Sequence record: PV419677.1
Length of the DNA stretch: 64,000 bases
Source: a phage
Strand: one strand, 5' to 3'
Shown here: positions 12,502 through 63,369 of the stretch, piece after piece
Numbering within the stretch: the first letter of the stretch is position 1
Layout of the letters: each line of letters begins with the position of its first letter
The notes under the pieces: model-generated
The model's database searches: none
The model's input: only the letters and a program-made list of their open reading frames with translations
What the model was told of the DNA's origin: nothing
Program-made: the position numbers and the translations under genes

Positions 12502-12572
12502 TGTGTTCTCCTCAGTAGTTGATGGGATAATAGTACACCCTTTTTATGAGGATGTAAACCCCTTAATGAAAA

Positions 12573-18244: not shown

Positions 18245-18508
18245 TTACGCTTTACCGCCAGAAACAATACCAAAGGTATCAAAATCCCATTCAATATTGT
18301 CAACATCAACTTTCTTACCAGCAACCACGAATGCGATTTCGCGGCGTTTTGCATAGGTAACAATTTCTTTACCATCGCCGCCAAAGAAAGAATAACCATT
18401 GCGCTTCATGGTGCCAAAGTCTTCAGCATCACCAGCGAAGGCGCGGACTTTAAAAGCACCGGTAGGAGCTTTAGCAGATTCAGTAATAAATTCTTGATAA
18501 GTTTTCAT
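18245..18508 (-). CDS. internal-protein-like (capsid-targeting N-terminus)
   Basis: from MKTYQEFITES: matches the T4 internal-protein N-terminal targeting sequence with an I-T-E cleavage motif. Confidence 0.6.
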   Translation of the reverse strand: MKTYQEFITESAKAPTGAFKVRAFAGDAEDFGTMKRNGYSFFGGDGKEIVTYAKRREIAFVVAGKKVDVDNIEWDFDTFGIVSGGKA

Positions 18509-18556: not shown

Positions 18557-18973
18557 TTAAGCGTACACAGCTTTCCCATAGTATTTGTACCAGGTAGGCT
18601 TTTGAGAAATTTTCTCATTCAGTCTGGCTTGACTGATTTCAATTGACCAGATTGATGGTTGATAATCATTTTTCCATTCATCAGGAATATCACTTAAATC
18701 TTGGGTAGAAATATCTTTTATGTTAAACCCTCGCTTTAAACATTCTGCAATAAGTTCTTGATGACGGTTTTTAAGGAACAAAAGTTTATCATAAAAGAAG
18801 GTAACATGACCAGTCCCTAAAAGAAAAGATGATGGAATTTTAAAGTCAGAAACCTTTTTACCATTTTGCACATGCTTACGAACAGCGCCAAAAACGCGAG
18901 GAAGTTCACGATATTCAGCCATAAGATGTTGGTCAGCAAGTTCAGATACCAGGGTTAAATTAATGCGAGTCAT
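18557..18973 (-). CDS. denV: endonuclease V (pyrimidine dimer glycosylase)
   Basis: 138 aa; [35 protein letters not shown] matches T4 DenV as recalled. Confidence 0.85.
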
Positions 18974-18999: not shown

Positions 19000-19029
19000 A
19001 TTATAACCCTATCATTTGGAGATGTACAC
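19000..19029 (-). promoter_or_regulatory. early promoter with -10 TATAAT inside a perfect inverted repeat
   Basis: gatagggt-tataat-gaccctatc on the minus strand with GTGTAC about 17 bp 5'. Confidence 0.45.
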
Positions 19030-19517
19030 TAATATGCGTCAAAAGTTCCGGTACGGAACGTTTCTATAACTCGTTTGGCTCGGTTCGGAGTCTGGACTTT
19101 ATACCATCTTGAGTCCGCCAGTTCCTTAGCAGCCGCTTCCCATGATTTAGCCTTCAGAAGTCGCATACCCTTAGGAAAACCAGCAACACCAGCAACACCC
19201 ATCTGGAATACCATATTAATGAGTGCACAACGACGAACTTCATCAAGTACATCATAAACAGGTTTTAAGACAGGGTGTCTCAAGATTCCGGCTTTAGCTT
19301 TTTCGACCGAACGATTAAACAATGTTTCAGCTTCGTGTTGGGTTATACGGCCATTACAGACACGACCCATGAGCTTGTCGAGCTCGGCGCGAGCGACATC
19401 TTTAGATGGGTTCTTAGTTATCAGTTGCCCGATACCAATGGTCCAATAGCCTTCAGTATCTTTATACAAATCCAACTTACAACCTTCATCTATGCGTAAC
19501 ATTTCGAATATATTCAT
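19029..19517 (-). CDS. e: lysozyme (endolysin)
   Basis: 162 aa; [37 protein letters not shown] matches T4 lysozyme. Confidence 0.95.
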
Positions 19518-27107: not shown

Positions 27108-27551
27108 TTAAATTTCAAATTCTTTGCGGAAGTTGGAAGCATAAGACTGAACTGATGCTTTGTTGAATCCAAACTCACGCACAATCATATCAATAACAGC
27201 TCTGCGAGCAGCACCATTAGACATATTAACAGTTTTGAACATATCATAGCATAAATCTTTGTTGCTCATACCGGAGCGTTTAGGTGCCTTACGTTCAGCT
27301 TTTGGTTCAGTCTTAGGAGTAGGTTTAACTTCTGGTTTAACCTGTCCATCATTCAGACCTTTAAAAATTTTACCTGCCAGTGTTGCCAGTTTAGCAGCTT
27401 CGCCACGAGTGATACCAAATACTGCCGGGTTAAATGAAATACCTTCAGCTGTCAGACGTTTGAAGAACATACGTGCAGCGGATTGTGCTTCAGCTTCAGA
27501 AGAGTTGTTTAATGCCAGTTTAACATACTTAACCAATTTTGAAGTTTTCAT
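27108..27551 (-). CDS. hypothetical protein, paralog A (VQSYASNFRK C-terminus)
   Basis: from MKTSKL; C-terminal GAARRAVIDMIV..VQSYASNFRK shared with the next gene. Confidence 0.55.
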   Translation of the reverse strand: MKTSKLVKYVKLALNNSSEAEAQSAARMFFKRLTAEGISFNPAVFGITRGEAAKLATLAGKIFKGLNDGQVKPEVKPTPKTEPKAERKAPKRSGMSNKDLCYDMFKTVNMSNGAARRAVIDMIVREFGFNKASVQSYASNFRKEFEI

Positions 27552-27634: not shown

Positions 27635-28060
27635 TTATTTTTGAGCTTTGCGGAAGTTGGAAGCATAAGACTGAACAACAGTCTTTTTGATATCATGGGT
27701 GTTAACCAGAACATCAATCAGAGCGCGACGAGCTGCACCATCTGCCATATCAATTTCTGCAAATGCCTGGAAGCAAATGTCACGAGCATTACCAGATTTG
27801 GACCGGATTTTTTCTTCTTTAACTTCTTCAATTGGGAATTCAATCATTTCAGCTTGGATTAATTCAATGATAGATTCTTTTGACTGTTTGGTGTTTACCT
27901 TCAGTTCAGAATTAAGGGACTTGGCAATGGCAACAATCTGGGTTGAAGTCAGATGAATAAGTGCATCTTCACGAATGCAGATTTCACATACTTCGTCAGC
28001 AACCATTTTGTTGGTGATGCGGGTAACAGAGAATGCAGAGGTCAGGGTCAGGAAGTTCAT
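27635..28060 (-). CDS. hypothetical protein, paralog B (VQSYASNFRK C-terminus)
   Basis: from MNFLTL; C-terminal GAARRALIDVLV..VQSYASNFRK. Confidence 0.55.
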   Translation of the reverse strand: MNFLTLTSAFSVTRITNKMVADEVCEICIREDALIHLTSTQIVAIAKSLNSELKVNTKQSKESIIELIQAEMIEFPIEEVKEEKIRSKSGNARDICFQAFAEIDMADGAARRALIDVLVNTHDIKKTVVQSYASNFRKAQK

Positions 28061-28589: not shown

Positions 28590-28664
28590 TGGTATCCCGC
28601 CCTGGGATCGAACCAGGACCGCAAACTTAGAAGGATCGTATGCTATCCATTACACCAGCGGGAC
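28590..28664 (-). tRNA. tRNA-Arg (anticodon UCU)
   Basis: 75 nt hand-folded cloverleaf: acceptor GTCCCGC/GCGGGAT, T-arm CCTGG-TTCGATC-CCAGG, anticodon loop CTTCTAA, encoded CCA. Confidence 0.7.
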
Positions 28665-28669
28665 ATAGT

Positions 28670-28746
28670 TGGTGACCCAGACCAGATTTGAACTGGTAAC
28701 CTTTCCCTTATGAGGGGACTGCTGCTAACCATTGAGCTACAGGGCC
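28670..28746 (-). tRNA. tRNA with CAU anticodon (Met or Ile2-type)
   Basis: 77 nt: T-arm ACCAG-TTCAAAT-CTGGT, anticodon loop CTCATAA, encoded CCA; D-arm pairing imperfect in my hand fold. Confidence 0.6.
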
Positions 28747-29227: not shown

Positions 29228-29413
29228 TTACTCACCTTTAGAGATTTTATCCATAACGAAAGAGATTGAACCAATTAAAAATGCAACTACTAAAGAGATT
29301 ATATTCTCAGAAGTTGAAAGCATATTCAACATAAAGCCAGCAAACATGCTAAAACCAAAAGCGGTAACAGCAACAAGGGCAGTAACATTTCTAATTAATT
29401 CACAACGTTTCAT
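29228..29413 (-). CDS. small two-helix membrane protein
   Basis: 61 aa, hydrophobic. Confidence 0.45.
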   Translation of the reverse strand: MKRCELIRNVTALVAVTAFGFSMFAGFMLNMLSTSENIISLVVAFLIGSISFVMDKISKGE

Positions 29414-29441
29414 TTTATTCTCCTCAGTAGTTGATGGGATA

Positions 29442-29471
29442 ATTATAATGCAGTTATCCCATCACGTACAC
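29442..29471 (-). promoter_or_regulatory. early promoter with -10 TATAAT inside inverted repeat GATGGGATA/TATCCCATC
   Basis: -35 GTGTAC; arms flank the -10. Confidence 0.45.
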
Positions 29472-29749
29472 TAAATTTTTGTATATTGTCCAGCTTTAAC
29501 TTTTTTCAGTTCACGAGGGCTTACCGCATAAGTGAATGGAGCATTCCAGGAAGAACTGACTTTGTAACCTTTAGTCAACATCATTGCTGAAACTTTCTTG
29601 TTATCAGGACCGTTTTCGCCTTTAACAAGAAACAACTCAAATGCGCCACCATCAACCGGTTTGGCCTTAACCATCAGATGTCCTTTCAGGTCTTCCAGCA
29701 TGTCCGGGTGACTAATTGATTCGTTAATAAATTCTTGATAAGTTTTCAT
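29471..29749 (-). CDS. internal-protein-like (capsid-targeting N-terminus)
   Basis: MKTYQEFINES; 92 aa, basic. Confidence 0.65.
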   Translation of the reverse strand: MKTYQEFINESISHPDMLEDLKGHLMVKAKPVDGGAFELFLVKGENGPDNKKVSAMMLTKGYKVSSSWNAPFTYAVSPRELKKVKAGQYTKI

Positions 29750-29775
29750 TAGTAGCTCCAGTAGTTGATGGGATA

Positions 29776-29805
29776 ATTATACTGCAACTATCCCATCACG
29801 TACAT
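29776..29805 (-). promoter_or_regulatory. early promoter with -10 TATAAT inside inverted repeat GATGGGATA/TATCCCATC
   Basis: -35 ATGTAC; near-identical to the cassette at 29442-29471. Confidence 0.45.
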
Positions 29806-30104
29806 TACATTTTTGAACCACGAATTACGCCATAAGCGGCGAAGTCGTCAGTGATATTTTTAGGAGTGTTTTTACCCGTTTCAATGAAAGCAATGCTTGA
29901 TTTCTGACTAAAAGAGGTAATTTTGTTATAGTTAGAGTCAAGGAAGGTATAACCATTTTTACGCAGCTGGTCAAAGTCTTCAGCATCGCCTTTACCTTTG
30001 AAGTCAACCCATTTGTAGGTGTTTTTCTTCTGAAGGCCCAGAGGCCAGGTTTTTGCTTCCGCCAGGTAATTGTTTTCTACCAAAAATTCATGGAGCGTTT
30101 GCAT
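29805..30104 (-). CDS. internal-protein-like (capsid-targeting N-terminus)
   Basis: MQTLHEFLVEN; 99 aa; shares GKGDAEDF..KNGY block with the ORF at 18245. Confidence 0.6.
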   Translation of the reverse strand: MQTLHEFLVENNYLAEAKTWPLGLQKKNTYKWVDFKGKGDAEDFDQLRKNGYTFLDSNYNKITSFSQKSSIAFIETGKNTPKNITDDFAAYGVIRGSKM

Positions 30105-30112
30105 TTGAAATC

Positions 30113-30385
30113 CTATTTTAGATAAATTGCGTATTTTTTATAACCAGCTGTCTCATGACGGAGACCCTTGTCATTGGCAAAACGCTCAATGTTATTAATT
30201 TGGTTCTGGTCAAGTTCTGAAATGTCAAACGCGAAAAAGTTGCGTTTGTTGCCAATTGTTATATGGTCAGTTAAGTCAATGCTATACAGGTGATTGATAT
30301 TGTCAATCATAGCTTTGACTGCTTTACTAATTTTTACTTCTTCATTCAGTTGTGACTCGTTGAAAAATTCATTGAAAGTTTTCAT
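30113..30385 (-). CDS. internal-protein-like (capsid-targeting N-terminus)
   Basis: MKTFNEFFNES; 90 aa. Confidence 0.6.
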   Translation of the reverse strand: MKTFNEFFNESQLNEEVKISKAVKAMIDNINHLYSIDLTDHITIGNKRNFFAFDISELDQNQINNIERFANDKGLRHETAGYKKYAIYLK

Positions 30386-30393
30386 AAGAAACC

Positions 30394-30726
30394 TTATTTA
30401 TAAAGTTTTGCCAGTTCTTTACGTCCGCGAGCAGACATAATAAATTGTTCATCGCCAATTTTAAAATAAGCCATACCGCCGTCAACAGCGATACCAATTT
30501 CTTTAGTACCTTCTTTGCCTTTCCACTTGCCACCAGATTTCAGGACAGCTTCAACTGCAGCTTTGGAATATTTGGACGTTTGAAAACGTTCATTACCAAT
30601 CTGAAAGAAAACACCATCTGCATTTTTGGTTAAACCAAATTTCAGAGAGCCTTCACTATCATCAATTGATTTGGTCTCATTGATGGCGGATTCGGCTAAA
30701 AACTCGTTGTAAGTTTTGATGTTCAT
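30394..30726 (-). CDS. internal-protein-like (capsid-targeting N-terminus)
   Basis: MNIKTYNEFLAES from ATG at 30726; 110 aa. Confidence 0.6.
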   Translation of the reverse strand: MNIKTYNEFLAESAINETKSIDDSEGSLKFGLTKNADGVFFQIGNERFQTSKYSKAAVEAVLKSGGKWKGKEGTKEIGIAVDGGMAYFKIGDEQFIMSARGRKELAKLYK

Positions 30727-30789
30727 ATTAACTCCATTGTTCATTCGTTGGTGTAGGAACATAATACTGCACCTACACTTATTTGTACA

Positions 30790-31480
<691 letters not shown>

Positions 31481-31481
<1 letters not shown>

Positions 31482-32158
31482 TATATTACCTTATTAATTT
31501 TATCAAAAAGTTCTTCGAGTGTGCCATTGTTTTTAATAACAATGTCACTAGCTAGTGGTGGAAGTCCAGCTTCCGTAATGTGTGTATCAGTAGAATGATT
31601 TGCTTCATCGCGTTCTACAAAGATTATTGTAGCACCCATCGCCCGAAGCGAATCAAGTTCGTTCTTTTGACGAACATCTGGGACAACGTAATATTTATAT
31701 CCAGAATAGAGGTTGTCAAGATAATCGCACGCAAAAGTTTTAATCCAAAACATGCTGTCGAACTCTGTACAAACGATGTCAGTTCCAAGGGTCTGCATGA
31801 AACGTCTAACTGTCCAGGGCTCAACATTATTTAGTGTGTGAAATTCAATGATTTTACGAACCATATCTGGATTCGGAAGGTCAAGATTGTATTGTTGTTT
31901 CAACCATTCAAGAGCATCAACCAGAAGAATATAAGCTTCGGTGTTGTTCATTATCAAGGTTTTTTCACGGTCATAACCTTGTCCATCAAAATTTTCCAGG
32001 GTCAAATTGTGTGGCAGGTCTTGACGAATCCACGCTTTATAAAGCGCTTCTTTAATCGGACCTGCAAGCTGCCACTTTGTTCCGTTTTGACTAATAACAT
32101 AATCAGCAGTCGTATCTTTACCACTGCGTTTTTTACCCACAATCGCAATTAATTTCAT
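31481..32158 (-). CDS. 1: deoxynucleoside monophosphate kinase
   Basis: MKLIAIVGKKRSGKDTTADYV P-loop and overall match to T4 gp1 as recalled. Confidence 0.85.
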
Positions 32159-32754
32159 ACGTTTCTCATAGATGGATGCATTGACTTAGACCTGATTTCC
32201 TGTTGCATTGCTGCATTACTATCAATCTGTGGTCTACCTTCTATTATTATACCATCAATTTCTACAGCAAAAGACTTAAAGTTAAAAGTTGCTGTTGCAT
32301 TGATAGCCGGGTCAGAATCTTCTTTATATGAGTACTGAATCTCTGACAGGTCGGACGGCCATGCTCCATAGTAATGGATTGACATGACAATTTTGTCCTT
32401 GTTGTTATCTAAGATATGAAGCGTGACCGCTTCGGGGCGACCCTTCGGATGCCATGCTTTTGATTCGTGTGTGATGTAGTTGTTGAGCGAGAGCATCCAT
32501 TTATAGATGTCAAGCCATGCTCTTAAGTCTTTGTCACACAGAAAGTTAACAATCAGTGGGTCGAATTCTATTGTACTACCAGGAAGGCTGGAGCGATTTA
32601 TACCTTGTGTTCCGCCCGGAACATCCGTCACAGGAATGTGAACTCCAGGGAGGGTAACATCTTGAACGTTGAGTTTAAAGGTCTGTGTGAGGTTTGAATC
32701 GCTTACCTCTAATATAAAGTTAGTCGTGTTAGTTTGATTATATAAACCTGACAT
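32155..32754 (-). CDS. 3: tail completion / tube terminator protein gp3
   Basis: 199 aa at the T4 gene 3 position (order 1-3-2-4); assigned by synteny. Confidence 0.55.
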   Translation of the reverse strand: MSGLYNQTNTTNFILEVSDSNLTQTFKLNVQDVTLPGVHIPVTDVPGGTQGINRSSLPGSTIEFDPLIVNFLCDKDLRAWLDIYKWMLSLNNYITHESKAWHPKGRPEAVTLHILDNNKDKIVMSIHYYGAWPSDLSEIQYSYKEDSDPAINATATFNFKSFAVEIDGIIIEGRPQIDSNAAMQQEIRSKSMHPSMRNV

Positions 32755-32839: not shown

Positions 32840-33514
32840 TTATTTTATTAATGTGTTAAGTCTTAGCTTAGTCATAAACGGATAACGTTCCAACATTGGC
32901 TTTACCCAGTATCGAGGATGCAATTCCTTTTTATATGCTAGGACCAACTCTCGAGCTTGCTCGACGGTATCAACTCCGAAGTTTTTACACATTTCTTGCC
33001 TATCTTTTTCCCACCGGCGCTTTCTCAATTCATCCTGAATCTCTTTATTTTTAAAATGTTCATTATTGCGAGAATGTTTTGTACCCTTGGTTGGACTGTA
33101 ATGTCTTCCTTTGACAAACCCATCCGGAACATCTTCCCATGGAAATAGTTTTATCGATTTGACACCATTATTAAAGTAAACTTTACCGGTTTGACTTTTA
33201 GAAATATTGTCAGCGTGCCTACGTCTTAACCAACCAAATAATTTATTATTGCGTTTCAAATACTTGCTTGACTGACTCATAGATGTGGCGGCAAAACTTA
33301 AACCTGGATTTGTATGATATATTTTAACCAATAGTTGATGGGCTACATAATGTTCCTCTGGAGTCAAATCGACCAGATTATCTGGGTCATTGGAACCGCC
33401 CATACATTTTGGAATGATGTGATGAGATTCTTTATATGAAATCAGGACCCTATTACGGGCCCTTTCAATTAACGATAAATATATAAACTGATAATTCAAA
33501 GTGAATTTCTCCAT
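32840..33514 (-). CDS. HNH homing endonuclease
   Basis: [29 protein letters not shown]; inserted between genes 3 and 2, overlaps gene 2 3' end. Confidence 0.7.
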
Positions 33515-60480: not shown

Positions 60481-62055
60481 ATGGCAGGTTTTAACACAAT
60501 ACTAAATTTTCTTAAGCCTTGGGCTAAAGAAGATGAACAAGAATATAAGCAACAAGAAAAAAATAATTTAGAGTCAATGACCGGGCCGAAGTTTGACGAT
60601 GGGGCTCGCGAAATTGAGTCACAAGAACAAAACGTCCCGTATAATGCATTGATGCAACAGATGTTCGGGAGTAATGAACCTGAAGTAAAAAATACCAGGG
60701 AATTAATTGACACCTACCGCAACTTACTAAATAATTATGAAGTTGATAACGCGGTGCAAGAAATTGTGTCTGATGCTATCGTTTTTGAAGACGGTAAAGA
60801 TGTTGTAGCTCTTAACCTTGATGCTACCGAATTTAGTCAGAAAATTAAAGACCGAATCCTTGAAGAATTTTTGGAAGTTAATAACCTCCTTAATTTCGAG
60901 CGTAAAGGTTCTGACCATTTTAAACGTTGGTATGTGGATTCTCGAATTTTCTTCCACAAAATTATCAACCCAGCAAAACTTAAAGATGGAGTTCAAGAAC
61001 TTCGTCGCCTTGACCCAAGACAAATCCAGTTCATTCGTGAAATCGTTACACGCATGGAAAATGGTACAAAAATTGTCGACGGTTACAGAGAATATTTTGT
61101 ATACGATACTGGCCATGAAAGTTATTGTGCCGATGGTCGTATATATGAAGCAGGTACTAAAATAAAAATTCCTCGTGCGGCAATTGTATATGCACATTCT
61201 GGATTACTTGATTGCTGTGGTAAGAATATCATCGGATACTTGCAACGAGCAATTAAACCTGCAAACCAATTAAAACTATTAGAAGATGCTTTAGTCATTT
61301 ATCGTATAACTCGTGCCCCAGACCGCCGAGTCTTTTATATCGATACCGGGAATATGCCGTCTCGTAAAGCAGCAGCACATATGCAACATATTATGAACAC
61401 GATGAAAAACCGTGTCGTATATGATGCAACCACGGGTAAAATCAAAAACCAACAGCACAACATGTCTATGACAGAAGACTATTGGTTGCAACGTCGTGAT
61501 GGTAAAGCTGTCACCGAAGTTGATACTCTTCCGGGAGCGCAAGGCATGTCGGATATGGACGATGTTCGCTGGTTTAAGAACAACCTATATCAGGCTCTCC
61601 GAATTCCATTATCTCGTATCCCTAATGACCAAAACAGCGGCGTTATGTTTGATGCGGGCGCGACAATTACTCGCGATGAATTGAATTTCTCTAAATGGAT
61701 TAGGCAGCTACAGAATAAATTTGAAGAAGTTTTCCTCGACCCGCTTAAAACCAACCTTATCCTGAAAAAAATTATTTCAGAAGAGGAATGGGAAAAGGAA
61801 CTAAATAATATTAAAGTTACGTTCAACCGTGATAGCTATTTCACCGAAATGAAAGACGCAGAAATCATGGAACGCAGAATCAATATGCTAACGATGGCTG
61901 AACCGTTTATCGGTAAATATATTTCGCATCAAACGGCTATGAAGGACTTCCTCCAGATGTCTGATGAAGAAATTAATCAAGAAGCTAAGCAAATTGAATT
62001 GGAGTCCAAAGAGGCTCGTTTCCAAAACCCTGAAGAAGAAGAAGAGGATTTCTAA
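60481..62055 (+). CDS. 20: portal protein gp20
   Basis: 524 aa, same as T4 gp20; synteny. Confidence 0.9.
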
Positions 62056-62303
62056 TGGATGATTTATTTGAAGCCATTAAATCAAACGACCTCGTAGCCG
62101 TTCGCAAATATTTTGCTGAAAACATTGGCCCAGTATGCGGTAGTTTGATTGAAGAACGTAAGATTGAAATTGCACGTTCCATCATGATTGAAGGCGAAGA
62201 GCCTAAAGAAGATGATGAAGACGGTAAAGCAGAAAAGAAAGACAAAAAAGAATCTGATGACGCTGACGAAGGCGACGATGATGAAGATGAGGACGATGAA
62301 TAA
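62055..62303 (+). CDS. 67: prohead core protein gp67
   Basis: 82 aa with poly-acidic C-terminus. Confidence 0.8.
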
Positions 62304-62731
62304 TGTTTATTATCCCTGATGATTACGAATTAACTCTTGAAAACATTGAAAGTGTTTCCGAAGAAGCTCAGGGACAATTTGATTCATTATCTGAAGCCTT
62401 AGAAAAAGACGATATAAATATTATTGTAGAAAACATGTTTGCAGCCGGTGAATATGAAAAAGCAACGGTTATCGGCGCGCTGAATGAAGGTGTTCAGCTT
62501 AACGAATTTATCGTTAAACATGTATCGTCTCGCGGTGAGTTAACCCGCACAAAAGACCTAGCTACTCGTAAGCGTAATGCTTTCCAAACAACTGGTCTTT
62601 CTAAAGCTAAACGTCGTCAAATTGCCCGTCTGGCTACTAAAACAAAAAGAGCAAACCCATCTACGCAAATCAGAGCAGAGCGCAAGCGCAAAAAAGCTCG
62701 AGCTAAGCGTAAAGCATTCGGACTTGATTAA
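62303..62731 (+). CDS. 68: prohead core protein gp68
   Basis: 142 aa, basic C-terminus; synteny. Confidence 0.8.
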
Positions 62732-63369
62732 TGGAACAGAAACCAGAGTTACTAATTGAACACTGGGGTCAACCGGGCGAAATTAAAGATGGTGTACCGA
62801 TGTTGGAATCTCATGACGGTTCCAGCAGCGGTTTAAAGCCAGGACTTTATATTGAAGGTATTTTCCTACAAGCTGAAGTTGTTAACCGTAATAAACGACT
62901 TTATCCTAAACATATTTTGGAAAAAGCCGTTGCTGATTATATGACAGAACAGGTTGCTACTAAACAAGCTTTAGGAGAATTAAATCATCCGCCCCGTGCT
63001 AACGTCGACCCTATGCAAGCCGCTATTATTATTGAAGATATGTGGTGGAAAGGTAATGATGTATATGGCCGCGCACGTATTATCGAAGGCGACCATGGCC
63101 CAGGTGATAAACTTGCTGCAAATATAAGAGCAGGTTGGATTCCAGGTGTATCTAGTCGTGGACTTGGTTCCTTGACTAAATCAGCAAAAGGTTATAGCAT
63201 CGTTAATGAAGGTTTTAAATTGACGGTTGGAGTAGATGCAGTATGGGGGCCAAGTGCTCCGGACGCTTGGGTCAAACCAAAGCAGATTACAGAATCACAA
63301 ACGGCAGTTGCCGATACCAGTGCCGATGACGCCTTTATGGCTCTCGCAGAGGCTTTAAAGACGTTATAA
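62731..63369 (+). CDS. 21: prohead core protease gp21
   Basis: 212 aa, same as T4 gp21; synteny. Confidence 0.85.
   Translation: MEQKPELLIEHWGQPGEIKDGVPMLESHDGSSSGLKPGLYIEGIFLQAEVVNRNKRLYPKHILEKAVADYMTEQVATKQALGELNHPPRANVDPMQAAIIIEDMWWKGNDVYGRARIIEGDHGPGDKLAANIRAGWIPGVSSRGLGSLTKSAKGYSIVNEGFKLTVGVDAVWGPSAPDAWVKPKQITESQTAVADTSADDAFMALAEALKTL

Follow-up and report, generated by a model that had tools for sequence, protein, structure and literature searches.

The four adjacent genes that lie between 57B and trna.4 on the minus strand of a 64 kb stretch of phage DNA (64,000 nt, record PV419677.1) very probably form the hyperplastic internal protein (ip) locus of a T-even phage of the VR7/SP18 type (Gaprivervirus-like). 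The whole stretch is referred to below as the window, and all coordinates are those of the strand as given. By analogy with phage T4, the four genes, termed here open reading frames (ORFs) 1 to 4, would be cassettes in which a capsid-targeting sequence (CTS) is joined as a propeptide to four unrelated bodies, and their products would be injected into the host as anti-defence proteins. A first-pass annotation of this DNA had proposed such a cluster from the N-termini of the genes. The observation is correct and the interpretation sound, but what they describe is the polymorphic ip locus of T-even phages, which has been known since 1994 and is rediscovered here. Two aspects are modestly new, namely the recognition of ORF1 and ORF4, which are annotated as hypothetical, as CTS-bearing internal-protein candidates, and an internal duplication combined with a predicted Whirly/PUR-like fold in ORF4.

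Four small genes and their common leader

The DNA of the locus is 100% identical to that of Shigella phage fPSFA and about 96% identical to that of the Gaprivervirus phages VR7, VR20 and SP18. All four ORFs are found on the minus strand with the N-termini that had been quoted for them (Table 1), and each is preceded at a distance of 6–7 nt by a Shine–Dalgarno (SD) sequence (GGAG, AGGA, AAGG and GGAG for ORF1 to ORF4). The ratio of non-synonymous to synonymous differences (pN/pS) against the VR7 orthologues is 0.00–0.03 for all four, which are therefore real genes under constraint. ORF4, ORF3 and ORF2 form one block with intergenic gaps of 8 nt each, and ORF1 is a separate cassette bounded by promoter/stem-loop (PeSL)-like elements. 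The ORF3 protein is about 99% identical to VR7 ip9 and is annotated as ip9 in VR7, VR26 and fPSFA. ORF1 and ORF4 stand as ‘hypothetical protein’ in nearly all records and are named as internal proteins in none of the records examined. Among 5.8 billion proteins the homologues of ORF1 make up one 90% cluster, and they occur in 18 of 50,697 phage records, always annotated as hypothetical; on this sequence evidence ORF1 is an orphan family confined to VR7-like phages.

The upper end of the cluster has been revised. It had been placed at position 30762, where an ATG lies in frame upstream of ORF4. This codon is situated inside a promoter/hairpin element and has no SD sequence, and the relatives of ORF4 begin MKTY at a position equivalent to the later start; the ATG at 30762 was rejected for these reasons. 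The true start is almost certainly 30726, as in the fPSFA annotation and in keeping with the MKTY starts of the relatives. In this phage group ORF4 begins MNIKTY (30718–30726, minus strand), with ATC (Ile) at the codon that is the initiator ATG in all more distant relatives. The start of the gene thus appears to have moved two codons upstream, leaving the CTS with a two-residue (MN) N-terminal extension.

In T4 the internal proteins IPII and IPIII both start MKTYQEFIAEA, and IPI starts MKTFKEFTSTTTPVSTITE. The leader of the four ORFs had been equated with the CTS of the T4 internal proteins as a group; the likeness holds for IPII and IPIII, and IPI fits less well. Compared with MKTYQEFIAE, ORF1 is identical at 9 of 10 positions, ORF4 at 7 of 10 (with an offset of 2 residues), ORF3 at 6 of 10 and ORF2 at 5 of 10. 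Phe7 and Glu10 of the CTS are kept in all four proteins. At position 4, ORF1 and ORF4 have Tyr, ORF3 shares Phe with T4 IPI, and ORF2 has Leu; the close relatives of ORF2 and ORF4 start with the canonical MKTYQEF or MKTYxEF. According to a review (PMC9026906), encapsidation needs no more than the first 10 residues of IPIII, CTS residues 4 and 7 are important for targeting and CTS residues 8 and 10 are important for processing, and gp21 cleaves after L/I-x-E.

A six-frame translation of the window contains five copies of the motif [KQR]T[YFLW]xEF[ILFVM]xE. All five stand immediately at a start codon, and the genes that bear them are confined to the two ip loci. The motif is found in none of 400 shuffled windows (200 mononucleotide and 200 triplet shuffles). 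The fifth occurrence belongs to a gene at the second ip locus of T-even phages, where it adjoins denV and the lysozyme gene e; this fifth gene and ORF2 are paralogues (33% identity, E 3e-16). The region upstream of the fifth gene contains TATAAT within a short hairpin.

The slot between 57B and trna.4 was surveyed in 33 loci in total, 28 of them further ones that were fetched with the 57B protein. Among 41 distinct CTS-bearing proteins from the 33 loci, positions 1–11 are nearly invariant and no constraint is seen beyond them. The same leader peptide is encoded by 38 different 30-nt sequences, in which all four Thr codons and both Tyr, Phe, Glu and Ile codons are used. Because synonymous variation among these coding sequences is free, the leader is conserved as protein and not as DNA, and a similarity at the DNA level only was rejected as its explanation.

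Canonical gp21 sites of the L/I-x-E type are present at CTS positions 8–10 in ORF1 (I-N-E), ORF2 (L-V-E) and ORF4 (L-A-E), and second candidate sites are found in ORF2 (L-A-E), ORF3 (L-N-E) and ORF4 (I-N-E). The earlier claim that the N-termini carry an (L/I/F)-x-E cleavage motif can be retained in its canonical form for three of the genes; in ORF3 the first site is the non-canonical F-N-E, and the canonical L-N-E follows five residues later. When cleavage is predicted with the rule [LIVF]xE, which recovers the known 76-aa IPI*, the mature products have 75–98 aa, masses of 8.7–10.2 kDa and isoelectric points (pI) of 8.3–9.6, and are thus small and basic like IPI* and IPII*. The predicted mature size is 82 aa for ORF1 (pI 9.6), 83–89 aa for ORF2 (pI 9.5), 75–80 aa for ORF3 and 93–98 aa for ORF4 (pI about 9.4).

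The bodies that follow the leader are divergent, as had been stated. No similarity past the leader is detected among the four ORFs by BLASTP at E ≤ 1e-3, and PHROG cross-matches between families span the first 14–40 residues only. Sixty-five leader-bearing proteins, including T4 IPII, T4 IPIII and the fifth gene of the window, fall into 14 body families. The four ORFs belong to four different families, ORF3 being placed in family F0, to which 14 of the sampled CTS proteins belong. Scans of the four proteins against Pfam and NCBIfam gave nothing above noise, and phmmer searches of each of them against all PDB sequences gave no significant match.

The slot, its borders and its neighbours

The four genes sit exactly in the T4 ipI slot, which extends from 57B to trna.4 and is one of the two ip loci. 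The gene order in T4 is the same, with the single gene ipI between these borders. In the surveyed loci 57B and trna.4 lie 211 to 1664 nt apart, with 0–5 genes in the slot, and almost every real ORF within it bears the leader. The ‘expanded payload’ that had been seen beside 57B is an expansion in comparison with T4, but is ordinary for the genus, as VR7 and VR20 have five cassettes in the slot. The fifth cassette of VR7 is ip6, located between ORF1 and trna.4 and flanked by two further PeSL-like copies, and in VR26 ip5 and ip6 replace ORF2 and ORF1. Judged from the loci compared, the repertoire varies by whole-cassette swapping and not by rapid point mutation, which fits the low pN/pS. Recombination at the PeSL elements and at the 5' coding ends, both of which are conserved, is the probable route of this swapping.

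Three PeSL-like elements are present in the cluster, and they are homologous to those flanking T4 ipI. The architecture of PeSLs has been described (Arbiol et al., 2010, PMC2839356; Comeau et al., 2014, PMC4122927), and their consensus in T4/PST is TTTACW-N17-TAYWAT (Comeau et al., 2014, PMC4122927). The elements of the window resemble PeSLs in being repeats of about 55 nt with a -35-like box, a 17-nt spacer, a -10 box and an overlapping stem-loop, and in their location at the cassette borders of a hyperplastic region. The -10 boxes TATAAT and TATTAT fit TAYWAT. The elements differ in that the -35 box is TGTACR and not TTTACW, to which it fits at 4–5 of 6 positions, and in that the stem (GATGGGATA/TATCCCATC) has a sequence peculiar to this group of phages. 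The element at 29750–29804 is 91% identical to the copy at 29425–29481. The repeat core recurs in a third copy (TACTATTATCCCATCAACTACTG, 2 mismatches) at 12513–12535 on the minus strand, far from the ip locus, and this copy may mark another shuffling hotspot.

The upstream border, 57B, gives a full-length match to Acb1, a phosphodiesterase directed against the cyclic oligonucleotide-based antiphage signalling system (CBASS), yet it is labelled ‘RNA ligase’ or hypothetical in many records. With 57B being full-length Acb1, the ip cassettes directly adjoin a proven anti-defence gene. Beyond 57B the upstream region continues with 57A, gene 1 and gene 3, and downstream of the ip slot follow trna.4, trna.3 and two tRNAs. 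The latter (Arg-tct and Met-cat, 28590–28746, minus strand) are the only two tRNA genes in the scanned 20–30 kb stretch; T4 has eight tRNAs and segB at the corresponding position.

Genes for head assembly are present at the far end of the window, on the plus strand in the case of gp67, gp68 and gp21. The gp21 prohead protease would be the enzyme expected to remove the CTS, and gp67 and gp68 belong to the core to which the CTS is thought to bind. Two further observations concern the wider surroundings of the locus. Just upstream of gene 3 (32155–32754), on the gene 2 side, an ORF of 224 aa (32840–33514, minus strand) gives a weak HNH match (PF01844, E 0.0012, below the curated cut-off) and is probably a free-standing homing endonuclease insertion, which T4 is without at that position. 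In addition, two genes in tandem (27108–27551 and 27635–28060, minus strand) are paralogues with a common domain of about 70 aa at the C-terminus (44% identity, E 2e-18, ...GAARRAxIDxxV...VQSYASNFRK), and neither of the pair has a Pfam match.

Table 1. Features of the window that bear on the ip locus. A slash in a leader marks a predicted gp21 cut; dG is the folding free energy of the stem-loop and z its z-score.
Feature	Position	Strand	Description	Match or remark
ORF1	29471–29749	-	92 aa, MKTYQEFINES (MKTYQEFINE/SISH...)	VR7ORF153c orthologue; phrog_15565 (unknown function)
ORF2	29805–30104	-	99 aa, MQTLHEFLVEN (MQTLHEFLVE/NNYLAE/...)	VR7ORF154c orthologue; phrog_2667 (internal head protein), 2.9e-20
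ORF3 (ip9)	30113–30385	-	90 aa, MKTFNEFFNES (MKTFNEFFNE/SQLNE/...)	phrog_7673 (internal head protein), 1.7e-56
ORF4	30394–30726	-	110 aa, MNIKTYNEFLAES (MNIKTYNEFLAE/SAINE/...)	VR7ORF156c orthologue; phrog_3966 (unknown function)
Fifth CTS gene	18245–18508	-	87 aa, MKTYQEFITES (MKTYQEFITE/SAKA...)	phrog_2667, 8.6e-21
denV	18557–18973			Second ip locus
Lysozyme e	19029–19517			Second ip locus
ORF1–trna.4 element	29414–29470	-	TGTACG-17 nt-TATAAT, stem-loop, then trna.4 SD	PeSL-like; dG -18.2, z -4.1
ORF2–ORF1 element	29750–29804	-	TGTACG-17 nt-TATAAT, 14-bp stem-loop, then SD	PeSL-like; dG -19.5, z -3.8
57B–ORF4 element	30727–30789	-	TGTACA-17 nt-TATTAT overlapping stem-loop, then GGAG SD	Weaker PeSL-like copy; dG -13.9 kcal/mol, z -1.8
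trna.4 homologue	29228–29413	-	61 aa, predicted membrane protein	Conserved downstream border of ip slot
57B	30790–31245	-	Acb1 (anti-CBASS phosphodiesterase)	Pfam PF23474, 1.2e-59; conserved upstream border of ip slot
gp20	60481–62055		Portal
gp67	62055–62303	+		PF17634 GP67; gp67/gp68 also phrog_1064, phrog_1049
gp68	62303–62731	+	Prohead core/scaffold protein	phrog_1064, phrog_1049 (gp67/gp68)
gp21	62731–63369	+	Prohead core serine protease	Peptidase_S77, 6.3e-102

A predicted fold for ORF4

The ORF4 family is small. A word search gives 11 clusters, and an exhaustive profile search gives 6 representatives among 1.84 billion. All full-length family members for which sequence was examined bear the CTS, including four new ones from the profile search; a repetitive 196-aa protein that was also returned by this search was judged spurious. 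Because the profile search yields few members and these bear the CTS, no cellular homologue of ORF4 is available to supply a function. The family profile finds no match in the PDB, and 12 family members scanned against Pfam at E ≤ 10 give no match, including to PUR, Whirly and PC4.

Alignment of one half of the mature ORF4 region with the other shows that they are homologous (hhalign probability 95%, E 4e-8). The AlphaFold model of ORF4 has a mean predicted local distance difference test (pLDDT) score of 76.7, with means of 75–89 for 10-residue blocks over the mature part from residue 31. The prediction was made from a shallow alignment and gave one good model out of five. The topology of the model is (bbbba)x2, that is, bbbba-linker-bbbba in one chain. 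Foldseek searches with this model place human PURA repeats I–II, MRP1/2 and Drosophila Pur-alpha at the top, with weak E-values. A mature domain that arose by internal duplication and adopts a Whirly/PUR (type I PC4-like) fold is consequently offered as a lead and not as a result. The first-pass annotation had named structure prediction of the mature domains as a way of checking its reading; this has provided a predicted fold for ORF4, and has given no IPI*-like fold for either ORF4 or ORF2.

The type I PC4-like domains are a class of nucleic-acid-binding folds, the members of which are typically without sequence similarity to one another (Janowski and Niessing, 2020, PMC7549692). Modelled ORF4 resembles the members Whirly/PBF-2 p24, MRP1/MRP2 and Pur-alpha repeats I–II in its bbbba-bbbba topology, its origin by duplication and its basic charge. 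It differs, as far as the model goes, in its size (about 93 aa versus about 150 aa), in having no sequence similarity to them and in its capsid-targeting leader.

The fold raises an alternative to the view that all four proteins inhibit defence proteins. It is possible, though the less probable case, that ORF4 is an injected nucleic-acid binder of the type I PC4-like (Whirly/PUR) kind that acts on DNA or RNA and not on a nuclease. Such a protein might serve as a coat or protection for the entering genome or for single-stranded intermediates, or it might mask the ligand of a nucleic-acid-sensing defence. The fuller proposal, in which ORF4 would be a capsid-targeted miniature Whirly/PUR-type binder, made by internal duplication and co-injected with the DNA, is a little more doubtful again. 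If it were true, T-even phages would deliver a nucleic-acid-binding effector besides protein inhibitors of nucleases, and its site of action would be either the genome as it enters or a defence that senses nucleic acids. The T4 proteins Ip1, Ip2 and Ip3, the three internal proteins for which targets have been identified, do not work as nucleic-acid binders.

Proposed role and comparison with known systems

For the packaging, cleavage, injection and anti-defence targets of the four proteins, we infer the following course by analogy with T4. The leader of 10–12 residues would dock each protein on the gp22/gp67/gp68 scaffolding core during prohead assembly. The gp21 protease would then cut after Glu10 (Glu12 in ORF4), and a second cut is probable at the L/I-x-E found 5–6 residues on in ORF2, ORF3 and ORF4. 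The basic mature proteins would stay in the head with the DNA and be ejected into the cell along with it and, because of this joint ejection, would act before any phage gene expression. Their most likely job would be to neutralize specific defences of the host that are directed at modified DNA on its arrival, as is the case for T4 Ip1, Ip2 and Ip3. Each of these T4 proteins inhibits a GmrSD-type nuclease of its own and gives no cross-protection against the others (Silas et al., 2025, PMC12373910). If one inhibitor is needed for each GmrSD variant, the presence of several cassettes in one phage has a rationale. The same analogy suggests that the four proteins of the window may have an anti-restriction role. 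On DNA modification in Gaprivervirus, the literature searched contained nothing usable.

Several points weigh against this proposal. In the leaders, ORF2 has Leu instead of Tyr or Phe at CTS position 4, ORF3 has Phe at P3 of its first site (F-N-E) instead of the canonical L/I-x-E, and the motif of ORF4 is preceded by the 2-residue N-terminal extension. No likeness to IPI* is found by sequence in any of the four bodies, nor by predicted fold in ORF4 and ORF2. No virion proteomics or N-terminal sequencing of these proteins, or of VR7-like virions, was found in the literature searched. The only clear promoter-like sequences in the cluster are of the early type. The sole exact T4 late-promoter consensus in the cluster (TATAAATA, 30395–30402, minus strand) lies over the last codons and the stop of ORF4, 9 nt before the ORF3 ATG. 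This is too near to the ATG to leave an SD sequence, and expression at the time of prohead assembly is therefore assumed from T4. The sequence may serve the downstream cassettes, or it may be a by-product of the KLYK-stop codons. Finally, ip4–10 of T4-like phages, a set that includes the ip9 class, have been assayed against a number of GmrSD variants, and reproducible inhibition was seen with none of them (PMC12373910).

The failure of these seven other ip genes to act reproducibly on the GmrSD variants tested would also agree with a role of a more general kind, in which the proteins are packaged, but as generic basic components that fill the head or neutralize the charge of the DNA without a specific host target, the diversity of the cassettes being neutral turnover. 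All four predicted mature products are basic, with pI values of 8.3–9.6, and a T4 head contains about 1000 DNA-embedded internal protein molecules (PMC3012670). Such a role is nevertheless unlikely, as all three T4 internal proteins have specific targets, the pN/pS of ≤ 0.03 and the distinct folded domains amount to more constraint than charge alone needs, and the neighbouring Acb1 is a proven anti-defence gene. It is highly improbable that the shared N-terminus is only a gene-start or recombination module of ordinary early cytoplasmic proteins that are not encapsidated, since the peptide is kept and the DNA is not (38 distinct 30-nt sequences) and the motif is confined to genes at the two ip loci, although early-type promoter/stem-loop elements precede the cassettes, the cluster has no clear late promoter and the 5' ends are among the few sequences that cassettes have in common (family D1).

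The preferred reading, in which the four proteins are injected to counter host defence, has some practical consequences. Host immunity encounters the internal proteins before any other phage molecule, and the five CTS genes of the window (the four described here and the one at the second locus) represent five candidate anti-defence effectors. CTS genes are short, easily cloned and can be screened against libraries of defence systems, and the CTS itself is a ready means of loading cargo into capsids. The value of the present analysis lies in the catalogue and in the lead on the ORF4 fold and not in a new principle, as the shuffling of CTS cassettes via PeSLs has been textbook knowledge since 1994.

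The polymorphic ip locus of T-even phages was reportedly described by Repoila and colleagues in EMBO J in 1994, and the T4 internal proteins and the T-even ip locus are said to have been treated by Mullaney and Black in 1996. Injected T4 inhibitors of GmrSD (type IV restriction) were reportedly the subject of work by Bair and colleagues in 2007. The genes of the window share with T4 IPI, IPII and IPIII a leader with an L/I-x-E site, the ipI slot, small basic predicted products and bodies that have only the leader in common. They differ from them in that the bodies fall into other PHROGs than those of IPI, IPII and IPIII (phrog_4363, phrog_7857 and phrog_5341). As read from the genes, there are also four of them in the slot versus one in T4, and the leaders of ORF2 (Leu4), ORF3 (Phe8) and ORF4 (2-residue extension) are variants. 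Cassettes of the ip5, ip6 and ip9 types are annotated in VR7, VR20, VR25, VR26, SP18, T6, RB32 and RB51, ORF3 corresponding to ip9, and the phage differs from VR7 and VR20 in being without the ip6 cassette between ORF1 and trna.4. As in the T-even ip locus generally, the number and identity of the cassettes vary between related phages, and gp21 and the core genes are present. With regard to the T4 Ip1–3 inhibitors of GmrSD, there is no similarity to IPI* in the sequences of the four ORFs or in the predicted folds of ORF2 and ORF4. The likeness would instead lie in the type of locus and in the logic of delivery, in which an effector made in the previous infection is co-injected with the DNA, and the logic of one inhibitor per defence variant would explain why several cassettes are carried.

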